A stretch of DNA of 28,798 nt from a virus (Duplodnaviria; Caudoviricetes). A program made the position numbers and the translations under genes. The notes beneath the pieces were generated by a model. That model was not told the origin of the DNA. It did no database searches and saw nothing but the letters and a program-made list of their open reading frames with translations. Where the stretch lies: IMG/VR virus record IMGVR_UViG_3300022666_000118, positions 1 to 28,798 of that record, one strand, 5' to 3'. Positions 10,497-27,055 of the stretch are shown piece after piece; the stretch's first letter is position 1, and each line of letters starts with the position of its first letter.

Positions 10497-12545
10497 TTAC
10501 GATGCCGCAATTTCCATCACGGCAAACTTCCATTCTTCGCCGACCTGCCCGCCCAGCCTGCGGCGGAAGATCATCCGCACCAAATCCTGCTCTGCCAGCG
10601 TTGTCTCGTCGCGCACCAGCGACATGCCAATACGATCGGCGATCTTGTAGCCTGTCCGGTCGCCAAACACCACCGGGAAAGCGCCGGAACCGACATCCGG
10701 CATCGCTTCATCGTATGCAACCGGATATCCCAACAGCCGATCCGGCTGGCCTTCCTGGAGCGATGGCTGCCAGAATTTGCGATGCTCTGCATCCTCCAGC
10801 AGCGCGATGGCGGCGGCGGTAGAGTCGTTCATCAGCCACACAGAGCGCGAACGATATTGCGCCGCCACTGCATGGCGCGTGCGGATCAGGCCGTCGACGG
10901 TGATGGCGGACGCGGACCCGGACGCAACCCGGGCCAGGCTGTGCTTGTTCGCGGAGCCAGGCAGAATCCCCTCCGGTTTTTTGATCCCGTCGCCGATCGT
11001 GAACTGAGTATCCTCATCCACGCCGAATTCCTGGCTGGCCCACTCGCTGATTTTATTGGTCAGCGGATAGGCCGAATCTTCCATGAGTGCCTTGGGGATA
11101 TACACGGTACACAGCACGATATGCACCGGCGTCTTCTCGATGCCAAACGTCGGGGCCGTTTTGGCCTGCCCATCGGTTGGACTGTCGCCAACCCAGGTCA
11201 CGCGCATTGCAGACACATGGCGCTTATCGCCGCCGGTCACTTTCAGCCGGGTCATCACGTCGCGGGATGTCGGCGCAGCATCAGCCCCGGGGCGAATCGC
11301 AGTCATACCAGGCAGGCGCTCCAGCATATCCAGGCGCACGTCCTCGGGCACCATGTACCCGCCCAGACTCTCGACGGCCTCATTGAGATCCGCGCGCAGA
11401 GCGGACACGTCCACGCCCTCCAGGATGGCGCTCTTGAGCTGGCCCGGAGTCAGCACCACCATGCGCAGCGCACGCTGGCCGGCAGCGTCCAGACGATCGG
11501 GGCCGAACCGCAGCATCCGGCCGAATGCCTGGTGCTGCTCGTGGCGTACGACCTGGTAGCGATCGACGCCATACAGGTCATTGGACACCGCACGAACTGC
11601 GGGCTCCAGTTCGCCGAAGCGCAACATGGCAGCAGCACGCAACGGCTCAGCTGCCGGCTGGCCGCCTTGATTTCCGCCCTGATTGCCCACCGGAGCGAAC
11701 TGGTACGGTGGCCGGGCTGCCCGGGCTGCCGGGGCGCTATCTGCTTGCGAAATACCCAATTGCTGCATGGCCGAAGTGATTGCAGCAGCCAACTGCTGAT
11801 TATTCGCCGCCCTCATGCCCTCGCCTTCGGCCGGCGCCGTTTCGCCATTCTCCTGGTTCGCCTGCGGCGCTGCGCCGGTGAGGCCAACCAGTTCCAGGAT
11901 GGCGCCGATCTGAGCGTACTGTTCATCGGTCAGACCGGGTACAAGTTGCTTGATCTTTTCGAGCAAATTCATGTGTTCATCTCCTTGCAAAACTGAAACG
12001 GCCCTGAGCCATGCCGGCCCGCTACGCCCCGGCGCCCAAAACGCACGATCAAGACCGATTAACGACCGTAACGACACAACAGGCAGCGACCGCAGCGGTT
12101 GCACAACGGTGCGCGGCTCCATTGGCGTGGGGGTCAGCGACCCCTCAACGATTGGCCAGGTGGTAATTTCCCCGCTTGATTTTTGCTCAACCATGTGCGG
12201 CGCAGATCCGGACGACAAGCCCAGCTTGCCGGCCTGGGACAGCAGAAATATTGCGCGCTCGTATGCATCTCGCATATCCAATTGGGTTTCGACCCACAGC
12301 CCGACGCTGTCGAGGCCTTTGCGCTCCCATCCGGCGCCCAGCGATCTGCGCCCGATCTCTGGATCCAAACCGTGATGGTAGAGCACCGGGCGCCGTTCTG
12401 CGCCGCTCCAGTAGAACTTTGTGCTGGGGGTAAAAAATGTGTTCGCCAGATCTTCGCCTCCAAACACCACCAGGTGACCGCCAATGCGGCCCGCTCCAGT
12501 GGCCTTCAGCGCCCCGCCAAACGACACAAATAAATCATCGGCCAT
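10497..12545 (-). CDS. Prohead protease - HK97-fold major capsid protein fusion
   Basis: N-terminal protease motifs (LYHHG, GLWVE, GLSSGS, EGSLTPTP.EP); C-terminal MCP motifs (GGYMVP, GDG..KPEGI, WLMN, LLGYPV, FGD, R..G.V). ATG 12545 follows AAGGAG; a second AAGGAG-N8-ATG lies in frame at 11972. Confidence 0.93.
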   Translation of the reverse strand: MADDLFVSFGGALKATGAGRIGGHLVVFGGEDLANTFFTPSTKFYWSGAERRPVLYHHGLDPEIGRRSLGAGWERKGLDSVGLWVETQLDMRDAYERAIFLLSQAGKLGLSSGSAPHMVEQKSSGEITTWPIVEGSLTPTPMEPRTVVQPLRSLPVVSLRSLIGLDRAFWAPGRSGPAWLRAVSVLQGDEHMNLLEKIKQLVPGLTDEQYAQIGAILELVGLTGAAPQANQENGETAPAEGEGMRAANNQQLAAAITSAMQQLGISQADSAPAARAARPPYQFAPVGNQGGNQGGQPAAEPLRAAAMLRFGELEPAVRAVSNDLYGVDRYQVVRHEQHQAFGRMLRFGPDRLDAAGQRALRMVVLTPGQLKSAILEGVDVSALRADLNEAVESLGGYMVPEDVRLDMLERLPGMTAIRPGADAAPTSRDVMTRLKVTGGDKRHVSAMRVTWVGDSPTDGQAKTAPTFGIEKTPVHIVLCTVYIPKALMEDSAYPLTNKISEWASQEFGVDEDTQFTIGDGIKKPEGILPGSANKHSLARVASGSASAITVDGLIRTRHAVAAQYRSRSVWLMNDSTAAAIALLEDAEHRKFWQPSLQEGQPDRLLGYPVAYDEAMPDVGSGAFPVVFGDRTGYKIADRIGMSLVRDETTLAEQDLVRMIFRRRLGGQVGEEWKFAVMEIAAS

Positions 12546-13168: not shown

Positions 13169-13183
13169 ACATACCTCGCAAAT

Positions 13184-13245
13184 AAAAAAAACGGCGCTCG
13201 GAAAACGCAGCACGTTCTTACGTGCCTTGCGCTTTCCGAGCGCCG
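13184..13245 (-). terminator. Intrinsic terminator upstream of head/tail genes
   Basis: CGGCGCTCGGAAAGCGCA...TGCGTTTTCCGAGCGCCG followed by T8 on the minus strand. Confidence 0.88.
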
Positions 13246-13347
13246 CTGTACACAGCCTGTTGCGCCCGCTCCCGCTCTGGCCCTTTTTGCTGCGCCGGCC
13301 TTCCGAACGCCGCTATCCTGACCAGATTAGATTCCAGCTATAAAAAG

Positions 13348-13375
13348 ATTTTAGCACATTATCCCAGCTTTGCAA
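13348..13375 (-). promoter_or_regulatory. Sigma70-type promoter (internal late promoter)
   Basis: TTGCAA-N16-TAAAAT with an extended TG, overlapping the 3' end of the 89-aa ORF. Confidence 0.6.
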
Positions 13376-16315: not shown

Positions 16316-17609
16316 TTATGCCATGCCGGAGTACAGCCGCCGACCGCTGCGTACCCGGTTCAGCCATCCGATGATATACCGTTCTGCATCCAGGAAATGA
16401 TACATCTCCTTATCCTCGATGCCCTCTATGGGCTCGCCGCCGGCGTCCAGCGGCCGGCTGTAAGACGCCTTCTGCGCCAGGTAGCCGGCGCAATCCGAGA
16501 AAACCATGATCTCGTTGCGTGTGTGCGCCCCGTAAACCCGATTGATCCCGACCTCCACGTCGGGTTGGTCGGGCTTGCGAACCGGTAAACCCGCCCGGGC
16601 GAACTCCAGCCGCCATTGACCCTCGGAGGCGGCGCCACCAACGCAAAACGGTCTGCCGGGTTCTCCCTTCAGCAGCGCAGCGGCATGCTCTGCTGCCGTC
16701 CGGTTGCCCGCCAGATATTCCCGATACAGATACAGCCGGTTTGTGCCAGGCTCCGCCGCAAAAAACACGCCGGCAGTATTGACTCCGCCAAAATCCAGAC
16801 CCAGGTACCGGTTCCACTCTGGCGGTATATCGAAGCGCGGACAGGTATGCATCTCCGGCGAGAACGAATCGTAGATCAGGCCGGCCGGCCTCGCGAACTG
16901 CGCCAGATAAAAAAGCTGAAACTTCCACGGCGGCAACTCGCGCCGCGCTCGCTCGAACTCCGCCCGCGGAAAACGCGGGTTCATCGTCGATGCAAAGCTG
17001 ATCACCTCGATATCCTGGCTGACGCCGGCCCGCCAGGGGTCGTATATACGCTGCTTCAACCAGCCCAGATCGTATGGCGTCGTGGTGATCAGCGTACGGC
17101 CCTGATAAATGCTCAAACGACGCTGAATCGCTTCCCAGGATCCCAGCTGGAACTTGCGCTGTCCTGCTTCGTCCAGCCAGGCGGCTTTGGCCGTCGCGCT
17201 CTCCAGGCTGTCCGGATCCTGCGCATGGCCGAAAAAACACGGTGGTGGGGGTGACTCCGTCCCACCGGTCGCCGAACATGCGGCTACTGCCGTCCCGCGA
17301 GAAAACAAACTTCCGTACTGGCGATGACACATAGCGCCCCAGTTGCAGACGATCTTCAAACAGCCTGCGGAACTCTGGCAATGCCTTCAGCTCCAACAAC
17401 GGGAAGGTCGGCGTCACCACCAGGTAATCGCCCGGGCCACGCAGCTGCACCTCGCGCCATAACCAGACCGGCCCGAACGTCGTTTTCCCCCCCTGCGTGC
17501 CGCTCAGAATGGCCACGAACCTGGCCTGCGACTGCCAGGCGCGCCACTGGCCAGGGTGCAAATAGAACCGCAGCTTGCCGGCCTGCGTAATCTCGACCAG
17601 GTCATGCAT
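16316..17609 (-). CDS. terL: Terminase large subunit, split by one extra base in a T6 run (17232-17237)
   Basis: Walker A (SGTQGGKT) is in ORF 16410..17642; Walker B (WLDEAG), TTTP, GLDFG and H.LDA.RY are in ORF 16316..17359; removing one T gives ...TTVFFGHAQDPD... and a 430-aa protein. Confidence 0.92.
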
Positions 17610-18120
17610 CGCCGCCATCCTCCACGCTCTCCGGTTTAACAATCTCGATGCCGATCACCGGAACAGGCTTTCCGCCCGCCCCGCTGAGCTCCCGCCGTTC
17701 CAGCAGCAGACCGTGGTTCTTCGCCAGCAGTTCCAGCGCCGCCTGCGCATCGTGGAATTCGAGCACTGGCCGACCGTCGCGAGTATACGAGATTTTTTTG
17801 ACCAGGTGACTGTGCTCCTTGAGATACGCCCAGTTGACGCCGGTCATGGTCACCGTACCATCGTCGCCGATCTCGTAGGTGAAAAACTCGGCCGGCGCCA
17901 GCCGGGCCTGAGCTGTCAACCGCTCGATAACCTCGTTTGCCGGCATAGCCCGCTCGGCCATGCGGGCCTCAATTGCAGCCCGAACACCAACATTAACCAA
18001 CATTCGCGGCCCCTGCACATCTGGGTGAGCATACCCAACCCGCCGCGCCGCCTCTGTGGCGTTCCAGGTTTCCAGGTATGCCTCGATGAACAACCGCTGG
18101 CGATTGGTCAGTTTAGCCAT
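17602..18120 (-). CDS. terS: Terminase small subunit
   Basis: LT.RQ..F...Y....NATEAA..GY and ALELLAK motifs; directly upstream of terL. Confidence 0.93.
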   Translation of the reverse strand: MAKLTNRQRLFIEAYLETWNATEAARRVGYAHPDVQGPRMLVNVGVRAAIEARMAERAMPANEVIERLTAQARLAPAEFFTYEIGDDGTVTMTGVNWAYLKEHSHLVKKISYTRDGRPVLEFHDAQAALELLAKNHGLLLERRELSGAGGKPVPVIGIEIVKPESVEDGGDA

Positions 18121-18538
18121 GCGACGCATCCTCTTCGCCATCCGGATGCCAGTTGTCCGGCTTCCACACCGGAGTTTCCTGAAGATCGGCGAGCTGCTCA
18201 ATCAATTGGTTGATGCCCCCCATCAGGTAATCGATGCGATTGGCGAAGCTGCGCAGCCGGCGATCCAGGCGCGCAATCCGCTTCTCCTGTTGTGCTACCC
18301 GATCGGTCAGCGCTGCGATTTGTTGGATCAGGCTCTGCACAGTATTGGTCTGCGCCGTGGCCAGCGTAGACGCCGCGCCAACGATCGCGCCGACTGCCTC
18401 GCCCTGCTCGTGATCGGCGACGGCTTCCACCTGGCGCACCTCAGCCGGCCGCTTACGCCAATCTCGCCAGACCAGCACAATCTGCAAGATGGCCAGGAGC
18501 GTCGGCGCGATATATGGGATGATAACGTCTGCATTCAT
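18113..18538 (-). CDS. Membrane-anchored coiled-coil protein (lysis cassette, holin/spanin-like)
   Basis: N-terminal TM segment followed by a long coiled coil; ATGA overlap with the upstream gene. Confidence 0.55.
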   Translation of the reverse strand: MNADVIIPYIAPTLLAILQIVLVWRDWRKRPAEVRQVEAVADHEQGEAVGAIVGAASTLATAQTNTVQSLIQQIAALTDRVAQQEKRIARLDRRLRSFANRIDYLMGGINQLIEQLADLQETPVWKPDNWHPDGEEDASHG

Positions 18539-18849
18539 AGGCACGTCCGGCAATCTTTCCCGGCGCAGTTTGCCGGGGCGTTGAAGAACGCCCCGGCTGC
18601 CAGAGAGAACAATAACGTCGTGATTGCCGGGCGCACATACATCTGACCGAACAGGATTGGGTCGCTGTCCAATACCATGCCCACAACAACCAGCAGATAC
18701 AGGCCGGCGACATATAACATCGCCAGTCCATTGGTCAGTTTGATCCAGCGCCAGCGTGATCTACAGCGCACGAAGTACCGCAGATTGAGCACAAACCCGG
18801 CCAGGCCCAGCGCTATATTTAACAGCGATAGAGCCGTGGCCAGTGTCAT
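18535..18849 (-). CDS. Small 3-TM membrane protein (holin-like)
   Basis: 104 aa with three hydrophobic segments. Confidence 0.55.
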   Translation of the reverse strand: MTLATALSLLNIALGLAGFVLNLRYFVRCRSRWRWIKLTNGLAMLYVAGLYLLVVVGMVLDSDPILFGQMYVRPAITTLLFSLAAGAFFNAPANCAGKDCRTCL

Positions 18850-19325
18850 TGTGAATACGATTTCCCGACCAGCGGAATACCACGCGCCAGCGAATGAGTT
18901 GCCTTGCTGCCGAACATTTGCAGCGCCCAGGCCATCGCCAGCGATGCGATTTGTACCAGACCGCTCACCTGACTATCGAGGGCCTGAATATCATACGATG
19001 GGCTGTACACTCGCAGCGCCAGCAGGCCGGCCAGCAGCAAAAGATTCAGGCCAGCGCTCCAATTCTGCGCCTGCCCATCCCGCACCAGGCCAAACGATTT
19101 CCCGATATTGACCAGGAGCGCGATCAACGCGCCGAAACCAAACAGACTGCCGGCCCGGGCAATCAGACCATCCAGACCGCCATCATTCGATGTTTCGGCC
19201 GAAACACCTGGCTGCTCTGGCGTTTCAGCCTGCGCCAGCGCCGGAACGACAAATGCAGACGCGAACACGACGACCAGTGAGAACACGGTCAACACGATAC
19301 AGGTACTGCGCAAAAAGCTCTTCAC
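18846..19325 (-). CDS. Multi-TM membrane protein (holin-like), first gene of the late operon
   Basis: GTG after AGGAGG; signal-peptide-like N-terminus (ALA-Q) and three TM segments; SK.TH...RG.P..GKS C-terminus. Confidence 0.6.
   Translation of the reverse strand: MKSFLRSTCIVLTVFSLVVVFASAFVVPALAQAETPEQPGVSAETSNDGGLDGLIARAGSLFGFGALIALLVNIGKSFGLVRDGQAQNWSAGLNLLLLAGLLALRVYSPSYDIQALDSQVSGLVQIASLAMAWALQMFGSKATHSLARGIPLVGKSYSQ
19191..19206. promoter_or_regulatory. parS-like palindrome 1 (TGTTTCGGCCGAAACA)
   Basis: Perfect 16-bp palindrome with parS-type TGTTTC/GAAACA arms. Confidence 0.65.
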
Positions 19326-19349
19326 AACAAACCTCCTGATGTGGAAAAC

Positions 19350-19397
19350 AAAAAACCCGGAGCAAACCCATCGTCATCAGATGAGTTATGCTCCGGG
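19350..19397 (-). terminator. Intrinsic terminator in the late-operon leader (tR'-like)
   Basis: CCCGGAGCA...TGCTCCGGG followed by TTTTTTGTTTT, just upstream of the first late RBS. Confidence 0.88.
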
Positions 19398-19427
19398 ATC
19401 TATGCCTCGCTGAGCGGATTTTCTTAG

Positions 19428-19456
19428 ATTATACGCTCATGCTGCGCGCCTTTCAA
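19428..19456 (-). promoter_or_regulatory. Late promoter (pR'-like)
   Basis: TTGAAA-N17-TATAAT overlapping the end of the 67-aa ORF. Confidence 0.8.
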
Positions 19457-19640
19457 TGGCGGGTTTCTCGCGGACGACCCTGGTCATGGACTGTGAGACT
19501 TTGTCAACACGCCCCCCCTTCAGTTCGAGCTGTACCGATCCCCAGCCGCTATACTCGTGCACTGCCAGTAATGCTTCGGCTAATTCCTGTAGCTCTACCG
19601 GCGTCAGCAACCTGCTCAACAGATCTATCGCATCCGCCAT
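19437..19640 (-). CDS. Small protein, DUF2292/YezD-like; candidate late-gene regulator
   Basis: 67 aa; GWGSVQLELKGGRVDKV resembles the DUF2292 G-S-V-x-I-x-x-x-x-G-x-V pattern (recalled, not searched); has its own promoter. Confidence 0.6.
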   Translation of the reverse strand: MADAIDLLSRLLTPVELQELAEALLAVHEYSGWGSVQLELKGGRVDKVSQSMTRVVREKPAIERRAA

Positions 19641-19657
19641 AAAACCATCCTGGAATC

Positions 19658-19675
19658 ATTATAGCACGTGCGTTC
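19658..19675 (-). promoter_or_regulatory. Extended -10 promoter overlapped by a LexA-like box
   Basis: GGAACGCACGTGCTATAAT: GAAC-N4-GTGC (1 mismatch to GAAC-N4-GTTC) abutting TGnTATAAT. Confidence 0.6.
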
Positions 19676-19711
19676 CACGAACAGAATCCCTATTTAACCG
19701 GGCAAAAAAAA

Positions 19712-19891
19712 TCAACGTGCGCCGGCGCCAACTGGTTGCCGCTTGCCGCATGGGGCATGATGTACCCAGCGCTCGCCGATCCTGCGCCACTTCGGAGCGC
19801 CGCACCAGGTACAGACGCAGGTGCAGTCACGGTACAATTTTCCACACAGCACACACCGGCGCTGATTTTCCGGGACATGTTCAACAATCAT
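19712..19891 (-). CDS. Small Cys-rich (Zn-finger) protein
   Basis: 59 aa with CxxC...CxCxCxxC; ATGA overlap with the upstream ORF. Confidence 0.55.
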   Translation of the reverse strand: MIVEHVPENQRRCVLCGKLYRDCTCVCTWCGAPKWRRIGERWVHHAPCGKRQPVGAGAR

Positions 19892-20718
19892 AGCGGATCG
19901 CCGGCCTGACAATCTTGCGTGTCGAGGTGCGCCCCCGTTGCTGGCTCCGCAGCCGATTCCAACGTCCAGTGTTCCCCGGACTGGATCACCCGCATACGAC
20001 CGTTCACCTTGCTGCGCACGAATTGTCCAGGCTGCACGCTGGCGCCTGCCCTGCCCTGCCCCATCAGCAGCATCCGCATCTGCATGTTGCTCAGATACAC
20101 CCCCGTCCGCTCGCTCCCTGGGAGGGCCACCCAGTACACCATCCCTGCCGGCCAGTCCCCCGGCAGAAAAGGGAAGTTGCCTGGTTGCGCACCTCCTGCC
20201 GGATCGCCTGTTTCCGCGTTTGCGTCAGATGACGATTCTGCACGATCTTCCACCACGGGTTGAGCGGCCGCTTGCCGCCCGCCCCTCTTACGTTGCGCCA
20301 CGGCCTTTGCATCCCGGCGCCACTTCTCACGCTGGCATTCCGGGTTCTCACAGAGAAGCTTGCGCCGCGCCGTCAGCGGCGTCCCACATACTACACACCG
20401 TTTATCTTTGGCCGTCTCATCCGTTTTTACTGGTGTTTCGATCGAAACACCGGTCTTATCAGGTGCCTGTGTTTCGATCGAAACGCTCGCAGTCGGCGAG
20501 AAGATCGATGCGTCGGCGCCAGCGACAGGGTATTGGATCTCGCCCGGAAACATGCACGCCAGACTGCGCAGCACCCCGGCCACCGGCCCACTATCGTCAA
20601 TGCGCAGCCTGCGCAAACGAACCTCGGTCGCGCTCATATCGATATTGGCCGCCTCGCAGATGCGGCTGATCGATTGCTCCAGGGCTTCCTGGTTTGCTCC
20701 CATCAGTAGAATATCCAT
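19888..20718 (-). CDS. Hypothetical protein with CxxC...C-x4-C Zn finger
   Basis: 276 aa, starts 1 nt after the ParB stop; CVVCG...CENPEC followed by a basic helix; carries two VSIET (parS-like) motifs. Confidence 0.75.
   Translation of the reverse strand: MDILLMGANQEALEQSISRICEAANIDMSATEVRLRRLRIDDSGPVAGVLRSLACMFPGEIQYPVAGADASIFSPTASVSIETQAPDKTGVSIETPVKTDETAKDKRCVVCGTPLTARRKLLCENPECQREKWRRDAKAVAQRKRGGRQAAAQPVVEDRAESSSDANAETGDPAGGAQPGNFPFLPGDWPAGMVYWVALPGSERTGVYLSNMQMRMLLMGQGRAGASVQPGQFVRSKVNGRMRVIQSGEHWTLESAAEPATGAHLDTQDCQAGDPL
20434..20449. promoter_or_regulatory. parS-like palindrome 2 (TGTTTCGATCGAAACA)
   Basis: Perfect palindrome extending to 20 bp (20432-20451). Confidence 0.75.
20470..20485. 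promoter_or_regulatory. parS-like palindrome 3 (TGTTTCGATCGAAACG)
   Basis: 15/16 match, starting 36 bp from copy 2. Confidence 0.72.
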
Positions 20719-26211: not shown

Positions 26212-26253
26212 TTACAGGGGAGGAGGGAGGAGAAATACCCGCGCTCGGGCGTG

Positions 26254-26324
26254 TGGATCGGCCGGGACTCGAACCCGGATCGTCGAAATGCAAATCCGAC
26301 GTGCTCCCATTACACCACCGACCC
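26254..26324 (-). tRNA. tRNA-Ala(UGC)
   Basis: GGGTCGG/CCGATCC acceptor with G3:U70 and A73; D arm GTGT/GCAC; anticodon loop TTTGCAT; T arm CCGGG-TTCGAGT-CCCGG; 71 nt, CCA not encoded. Confidence 0.92.
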
Positions 26325-27026: not shown

Positions 27027-27055
27027 ATGATACAACTTTATCGCGCGCTTGTCAA
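27027..27055 (-). promoter_or_regulatory. Strong early promoter
   Basis: TTGACA-N17-TATCAT. Confidence 0.85.

Follow-up and report, generated by a model that had tools for sequence, protein, structure and literature searches.

Introduction

Among described systems, the Q/pR'/tR' region of phage lambda consists of a small regulator gene followed by a strong late promoter, a short leader, an intrinsic terminator and the genes for lysis and packaging, and unrelated Q families occupy this same position in lambdoid phages. In the BglG/SacY/LicT-RAT systems and in HutP (Bacillus hut), a protein recognizes a leader element lying over the 5' side of a terminator, and the action is local. Phage Mu Com is a small zinc-ribbon protein that binds RNA beside a hairpin in the mom leader and opens this hairpin, thereby acting on translation. 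The put RNA of HK022 acts in cis as an antitermination signal. The canT element of Tn916 is likewise described as a cis-acting RNA of processive antitermination (PMC11658703).

The DNA analyzed here (the window, meaning the whole stretch of 28,798 bases) is an entire IMG/VR virus record, rated as approximately 49% of a complete genome, with nearly all genes carried on the minus strand. The lambda order of small regulator gene, strong late promoter, short leader, intrinsic terminator, lysis and packaging genes is found in it again, with a 67-residue protein (p67) encoded at the Q position. It differs from lambda in the lack of any Q-family domain (Pfam families Q of lambda, 21 or 82, for p67 at E ≤ 10 and for the other ORFs scanned; PHROGs), in a conserved element that is tied to the terminator without keeping a fixed position relative to the promoter, in the presence of two putatively gated cassettes per genome, and in candidate proteins of 59-77 aa. 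The succession of promoter, leader element overlapping the 5' side of the terminator, and genes resembles the BglG/SacY/LicT and HutP systems; however, no CAT/PRD or HutP domain is found here (Pfam), and the alternative hairpin of those systems lacks statistical support for the first cassette. As for Mu Com, cassettes of this clade occur together with a zinc-ribbon ORF, but Com acts on translation and not on termination, and the only family link is a weak PHROG match in one relative (L005). With put and canT the locus shares a mobile element, a terminator as gate and a leader-borne antitermination signal; those RNAs, however, need no element-encoded protein and act processively, whereas here a very short leader carries a box whose presence goes along with that of a small protein.

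To our knowledge, detailed accounts of late-gene timing exist for few phage groups, and for phages of Chloroflexota there are none. No paper on regulation in Anaerolineae prophages was found among the literature matches listed. We propose, tentatively, that the locus is a terminator-gated late switch in which read-through needs a phage factor, most likely p67.

Results and Discussion

Gene Order of the Window

The features of the window are collected in Table 1, ordered along the minus strand from high to low coordinates.

Table 1. Features of the window in the order of minus-strand transcription, with coordinates as positions of the window
Feature	Position	Strand	Remarks
ORF of 115 aa	27049-27396	+	faces away from the promoter at 27055-27027
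Promoter TTGACA-N17-TATCAT	27027..27055	-	11/12 matches; head of the minus-strand early genes
Early ORFs and tRNA-Ala		-	after the promoter at 27055-27027
452-aa Gp3-like protein, then 715-aa ParB-like protein		-	after the early ORFs
276-aa ORF, then Cys-rich ORF (59-66 aa), then 67-aa ORF		-	gene order
Cys-rich ORF, candidate zinc-ribbon regulator	19712..19891	-	59 aa from ATG; 66 aa from TTG at 19912
Extended -10-like TGcTATAAT	19658..19666	-	in the 71-nt gap before the 67-aa gene
p67 gene, 67 aa	19437..19640	-	from the ORF list; candidate box-specific antiterminator
Late promoter A, TTGAAA-N17-TATAAT	19428..19456	-	sigma-70-type, 11/12 matches
Conserved leader box, 27 nt	19389..19415	-	runs into the 5' arm of the terminator; holds mini-hairpin and AGGC
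Intrinsic terminator (predicted)	19345..19397	-	interrupted 17-bp stem 19397-19356 and U-run TTTTTTGTTTT 19355-19345
AGGAGG ribosome-binding site of the first late gene	19332..19337	-	read in the sequence
Three small membrane/coiled-coil ORFs, then small terminase	17602..19325	-	first late genes
Large terminase (two frames), portal, Mu-F-like head protein, major head protein, tail genes		-	after the small terminase
Cassette B	13180..13375	-	in front of the capsid-side genes; overlooked by the sequence-only reading

At the head of the early genes, the 115-aa ORF and the promoter diverging from it probably constitute an immunity switch. This ORF looks HTH-like by eye and has no Pfam match at E ≤ 0.01. 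A tRNA-Ala(TGC) gene, 26253-26324 (-), sits within the early operon and is followed by a 12-bp GC-rich hairpin (26211-26184) with no clear U-run.

Late transcription would first reach a gene beginning at the GTG at 19325 (-). The 159-aa and 104-aa membrane ORFs among the first late genes have no family match, and the 146-aa coiled-coil ORF gives a weak Rz-like match (PHROG 739, E 0.0033). The small terminase is identified by PF03592 with an E-value of 5e-17. The sequence-only reading had placed holin-like genes and then terminase at this point; the terminase stands, while "holin-like" is only inferred. It had further seen no Q, RinA, ArpU or sigma-like gene, and none is found by Pfam and PHROGs among the window ORFs scanned, nor is a domain of these four kinds found in the 36 ORFs scanned, out of 47 of at least 50 aa, in a complete relative with terminal repeats (G003).

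The large terminase, 16316-17642 (-), is encoded in two overlapping frames. The ORF at 16410-17642 looks real in its first ~135 aa only, where a Walker-A-like motif is seen, and the ORF at 16316-17359 matches PHROG 2 from residue 43 onward. A frameshift, gene breakage or programmed shifting may underlie the frame switch; among the rows listed for contigs from another study, no indel occurs near it. A tblastn comparison of the large terminase of the relatives with the window gives no match.

Promoter, Leader and Terminator of Cassette A

The unit directly in front of the lysis and packaging genes is termed cassette A. Here the sequence-only reading had pointed to a near-consensus promoter lying over the ORF stop, a strong intrinsic terminator, the 67-aa ORF itself and an AGGAGG motif, all of which are recovered at the positions of Table 1. 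The TGA stop of the ORF (19439-19437) falls inside the spacer of promoter A. Sites with 11/12 matches number only two in the entire window (promoter A and the early promoter, each on the coding strand), where ~0.09 per window are expected by chance according to our own arithmetic at 59% GC. The leader between promoter A and the end of the terminator measures ~77 nt. Within it, a GC-rich hairpin of -27 kcal/mol is directly joined to the U-run, as is typical of a predicted intrinsic terminator; the fold of 19325-19430 has a z-score of -3.8, and 0/200 shuffles fold as well. The hairpin is absent from the list of a simple terminator scan because the loop limit of that scan is 8. A search of the cassette A region against Rfam gives no match. 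The distance from the end of the U-run to AGGAGG is ~7 nt and therefore leaves no room for another promoter before the first late gene.

Upstream of the p67 gene, the extended -10 claimed earlier is present as TGcTATAAT, but its -35 region has only 2/6 matches in our own reading, the element is unlisted by the promoter scan, and nothing corresponding to it is present in the homologous locus L219, where the homologous gene starts 3 nt after the zinc-ribbon gene and no promoter gap exists. This element is possibly the own promoter of the 67-aa gene. The stretch upstream of it does not fold like a terminator (z +1.3). A "LexA-like box" proposed for the same region proves to be only GTTC-N3-GAAC; the consensus of the LexA box is GAAC-N4-GTTC, and the candidate was set aside against this consensus only.

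The A-run of the leader is one A shorter (window position 19419) in L002, a near-identical contig, as well as in contigs from two runs of another study, so that the promoter-box distance is not strictly constant even among copies of this phage. Four runs labeled RNA-Seq were considered as transcript evidence and rejected: three of the four are flagged "probably DNA", and the contigs have even depth, one of them bridging the cassette.

A Conserved Leader Box Adjoining the Terminator

The 27-nt leader box is shared by window cassette A and both cassettes of L219, with 23/27 positions invariant across the three, whereas no such agreement extends to the promoter spacer, the loop of the hairpin or its 3' arm. 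Measured from the -10, the start of the box is at a different distance in each cassette (12, 29 and 24 nt), but in every case the box abuts the hairpin. The gene order of L219 is a zinc-ribbon ORF, the p67 homologue, a promoter over the 3' end of the latter, box, terminator, ribosome-binding site, late-gene homologues and small terminase; homologues of the 159-aa ORF and of the following ORFs appear in the window order. At this one homologous locus, the downstream promoter, the leader box and the terminator are thus kept. The mini-hairpin with AGGC that the sequence-only reading had singled out lies inside the conserved box, but its 3-bp hairpin is lost in the second cassette of L219.

A covariance model of box and terminator (R1), searched over 903,250 bases from 88 sources, matches only the three box cassettes at E<0.01, all of them in the 2 phages that carry p67. 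Window cassette B has no R1 match, and the box is not found in it. The box co-occurs with the p67 family, in two related phages only; shared descent could therefore explain the association. In most relatives, the leader holds a different conserved motif, which also adjoins the terminator. A pattern scan of IMG/VR for this motif was rejected as a source of further cassettes: its 124 matches in fetched loci are at chance level, and the 3 accompanied by a terminator were all already known.

Pairing between the leader and the 5' arm of the terminator was evaluated as the basis of a competing structure. For a near-identical copy of cassette A (L153), the pairing is not above shuffles (p 0.196). Over 21 cassettes, Fisher combination gives p 0.022 with 3/21 below 0.1, a weak signal that ignores the relatedness of the cassettes. 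Because of these two results, a competing hairpin of the RAT type is not established. The truncated fold of the leader yields an alternative hairpin of only -6.5 kcal, and in the alignment of the relatives' leaders (A11) the pairing register slides between rows. A protein that holds the box in single-stranded form, along with the initial bases of the stem, is a model that fits no less than a competing hairpin.

The p67 Family and Its Possible Relation to DUF2292

The L219 homologue of p67 has 77 aa and 41% identity (E 3e-12), and a third member of the family was obtained by profile search. An exhaustive profile search among 1.84 billion representatives returns 20 proteins at E ≤ 0.001, mostly of 60-84 aa, with the common pattern LTP..E...L..AL......GWG.V.I..K.GR.D. 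The homologue and the 20-protein family lead us to conclude that, on this comparison, p67 is the product of a real gene and belongs to a small uncatalogued protein family. No Pfam, PHROG or NCBIfam match and no RNA-binding family is found for p67, and a word-indexed search returns only p67 itself. Its single-sequence model (pLDDT 70.5) consists of two helices, a beta-hairpin and a basic tail; fold searches give no match at E ≤ 0.001 in PDB or BFVD. A scan of JGI metagenomes gave L142 as sole match, which was discarded, being a shared word inside an 899-aa ORF. IMG/VR scans with the family members P0004 and P0008 found nothing.

The sequence-only reading had regarded p67 as DUF2292-like. The likeness to DUF2292/YezD (PF10055) lies in the similar size and in a helix followed by a "G-S-V-Q-L" beta-hairpin, as in p67. 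Against this, p67 and 18 relatives are without HMM match: PF10055 does not match p67 (hmmscan, E ≤ 10), the six-frame translation of the window (E ≤ 10), P0002 and P0003 (E ≤ 1) or 16 further relatives (E ≤ 0.1), and NCBIfam gives no DUF2292 match for p67. The claim thus fails in every HMM comparison and is left with a single structural lead, the YezD cluster among the structural neighbors of p67 in the ESM Atlas, with a TM of 0.66 that the tool flags as under the bar and as a lead only. When the p67 family is compared by hhalign with one Chloroflexota DUF2292 protein, the expected helix-hairpin is aligned, with probabilities of only 1.1% and 3.6%. No solved DUF2292 structure surfaced in the PDB fold search. 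Among likely host genomes, DUF2292 occurs in 0/3 of Anaerolineae and in 1/151 of the Chloroflexota genomes sampled. The literature search, as far as its results extended, gave no study of the function of DUF2292. Kinship between p67 and DUF2292 is possible.

A Second Cassette and the Layout in Relatives

Cassette B is located ~6 kb downstream of cassette A. It comprises a promoter TTGCAA-N16-(TG)cTAAAAT at 13375-13348 (-), a structured leader of ~100 nt and then a predicted hairpin of -44 kcal with T8 (13245-13180; z -5.7). Relatives of the phage were found via the small terminase and via the small zinc-ribbon protein. The whole or nearly whole relatives G001 to G004 have two cassettes each, the first before the lysis and terminase genes and the second ~6 kb further on; these cassettes were mostly called by script, and those read by eye are cassette A of G003 and of G004 (2/8). 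Among 80 loci fetched with the small-terminase profile, some of which are the same contigs as G001-G004 or near-copies of the window, 22 strict cassettes lie on the coding strand versus 2 on the other strand, and at least one strict cassette is present in 16/80. As far as can be read from these sequences, the promoter-leader-terminator unit before late genes is conserved in layout among the relatives. A possible exception is L149, from an Anaerolinea sp. genome, where at ~2690-2900 a zinc-ribbon homologue is followed by TTGACT-N17-TAAGAT and no terminator is seen by eye within 200 nt.

With the zinc-ribbon profile, 3/4 genome matches fall in Anaerolineae genomes, including that of Ornatilinea apprima P3M-1, and the phage clade therefore likely infects Chloroflexota. 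Some relatives are prophages in Anaerolineae genomes, and G003 carries an integrase, an HTH repressor and an RHH protein.

Two further features are seen in the relatives. By eye, many second cassettes (those of L157, L160, L161, L181, L190, L206 and L225) share an A-rich motif with GAATA at its end in the initial 10-15 bases of the transcript, a second conserved leader element that is not clearly present in the window. In L181, positions 11463-11519 (+) match the Rfam family GP20-b (RF03003) with 39.5 bits versus a gathering score of 36.2. Given that this match immediately follows the second cassette's terminator, GP20-b, a cis-regulatory motif of unassigned function, may belong to the same late-leader architecture.

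Proposed Mechanism

Since a near-consensus promoter needs no activator, control should be exerted after initiation or by repression. The arrangement is probably a factor-dependent gate of late antitermination, as judged from the layout of the DNA. In a lysogen or early in infection, promoter A would fire into the strong terminator directly before the lysis and packaging genes, and transcripts of ~77 nt would end there. Once made from the upstream operon, p67 would attach to the box as it emerges in the new transcript, immediately beside the 5' arm of the hairpin; the bound protein would prevent hairpin closure, and RNA polymerase would continue through the late genes. Each cassette would be opened separately, by local action like that of RAT/CAT, HutP or Mu Com, with no processive modification loaded at the promoter. 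Since the box is part of the transcript and is fixed to the terminator and not to the promoter, local action at the RNA level is favored over a lambda Q mechanism.

The sequence-only reading had proposed p67 as an antiterminator acting on the leader. What holds of this is the gate unit, which is real, and the leader box, which is kept at L219; what weakens it is that most relatives with a cassette lack p67 and encode a zinc-ribbon protein in that position instead, the p67 family being absent from loci L004-L232 except L219. The identification of p67 as the factor is plausible, and we advance it with reserve.

The Zinc-Ribbon Protein and Other Explanations

The zinc-ribbon protein ranks close behind p67 as the factor. 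In the corresponding reading the gate is the same, a Mu Com-like zinc-ribbon protein (the Cys-rich ORF of Table 1) opens the hairpin, and p67 is an accessory gene inserted in one sub-lineage; we consider this a doubtful proposal, to be kept in view. The window ORF, which overlaps at its start with the stop of the 276-aa ORF, contains CxxC...CxxCG-x7-GER. An ORF with CxxC...CxxC occurs upstream of cassette A in 5/7 loci, in 4 of them directly and in L219 one gene further up; of the remaining 2/7 loci, one encodes a 69-aa ORF without Cys instead, and the other is truncated because its contig ends there. An alignment of eight sequences, from the window and 7 other loci including L219, L225 and the 73-aa family, brings the four Cys and CxxCG-x7-xER into register, but four-Cys ribbons align easily by chance. 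In most relatives the late promoter overlaps the end of the ~73-aa zinc-ribbon gene, although this position could merely mark the end of a replication module. The zinc-ribbon protein of L005 shows a weak match to a PHROG "translational regulator" (E 0.0054); the window ORF, on the other hand, has no Pfam, PHROG or NCBIfam family, and statistical support for its homology to the 73-aa family is weak (hhalign probability 15%, E 0.0018; BLASTP E 0.009). Two arrangements are conceivable: the cognate factor may in every case be the directly upstream protein, as with the unrelated Q families, or the zinc ribbon may serve as factor throughout, the p67 gene being an insertion.

The gate is less likely to take the form of a strict lambda-Q mechanism. 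Such a switch, with a factor that loads on promoter-paused RNA polymerase and confers long-range resistance to terminators, would account for the gene order Q-pR'-tR'-lysis-packaging, for the strong promoter with a short terminated leader, and for a "Q position" that is kept while its protein varies, as it is with the unrelated Q families of lambdoid phages. It is nevertheless unlikely: beyond the missing Q-family domain, the promoter spacers are not conserved between cassettes, the box keeps its distance to the terminator and not to the promoter, and no convincing -10-like pause element is seen by eye. Furthermore, a processive factor needs no second gated cassette 6 kb downstream.

We find it similarly improbable that no dedicated protein is involved, with the terminator insulating the late genes, read-through arising from a cis-acting leader RNA (as in put of HK022 or canT of Tn916) or from leakiness, and timing set by a repressor. 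The conserved leader adjoining the terminator is consistent with such a scheme, but the put and canT RNAs are far longer than the ~30 nt of leader that precede the hairpin here, no operator-like repeats are noticed at the promoter, and lysis genes would be expressed in the lysogen if a near-consensus promoter had read-through built in. A precedent is described in the cis-acting processive RNA of Tn916 (PMC11658703).

Finally, the notion that the product is a small regulatory RNA of ~77 nt, with the late genes read through from far upstream, draws on the discrete short transcript delimited by promoter and terminator and is highly improbable, considering that the unit always occupies the coding strand immediately ahead of a block of late genes, whose ribosome-binding site follows within a few bases of the U-run, and that no Rfam family is matched.

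Conclusions

The preferred reading remains the factor-dependent gate opened locally at the RNA level, with p67 as its tentative factor. A broader version of it is conceivable, in which two unrelated kinds of small protein, the p67 family (perhaps a far relative of DUF2292) and a zinc ribbon of ~70 aa, would open cognate boxes lying against terminators. The proteins and boxes might be swapped as modules among temperate Chloroflexota phages, giving a local, non-Q mechanism at the RNA level that serves two late operons per genome; this version, too, we regard as speculative. The unit is compact, with ~110 nt plus a gene of ~200 nt, and is therefore directly testable, and it could serve as an orthogonal genetic switch. 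If the reading is true, a whole clade of phages would gate its lysis, packaging and capsid genes by promoter-box-terminator units opened by tiny proteins of unassigned function.
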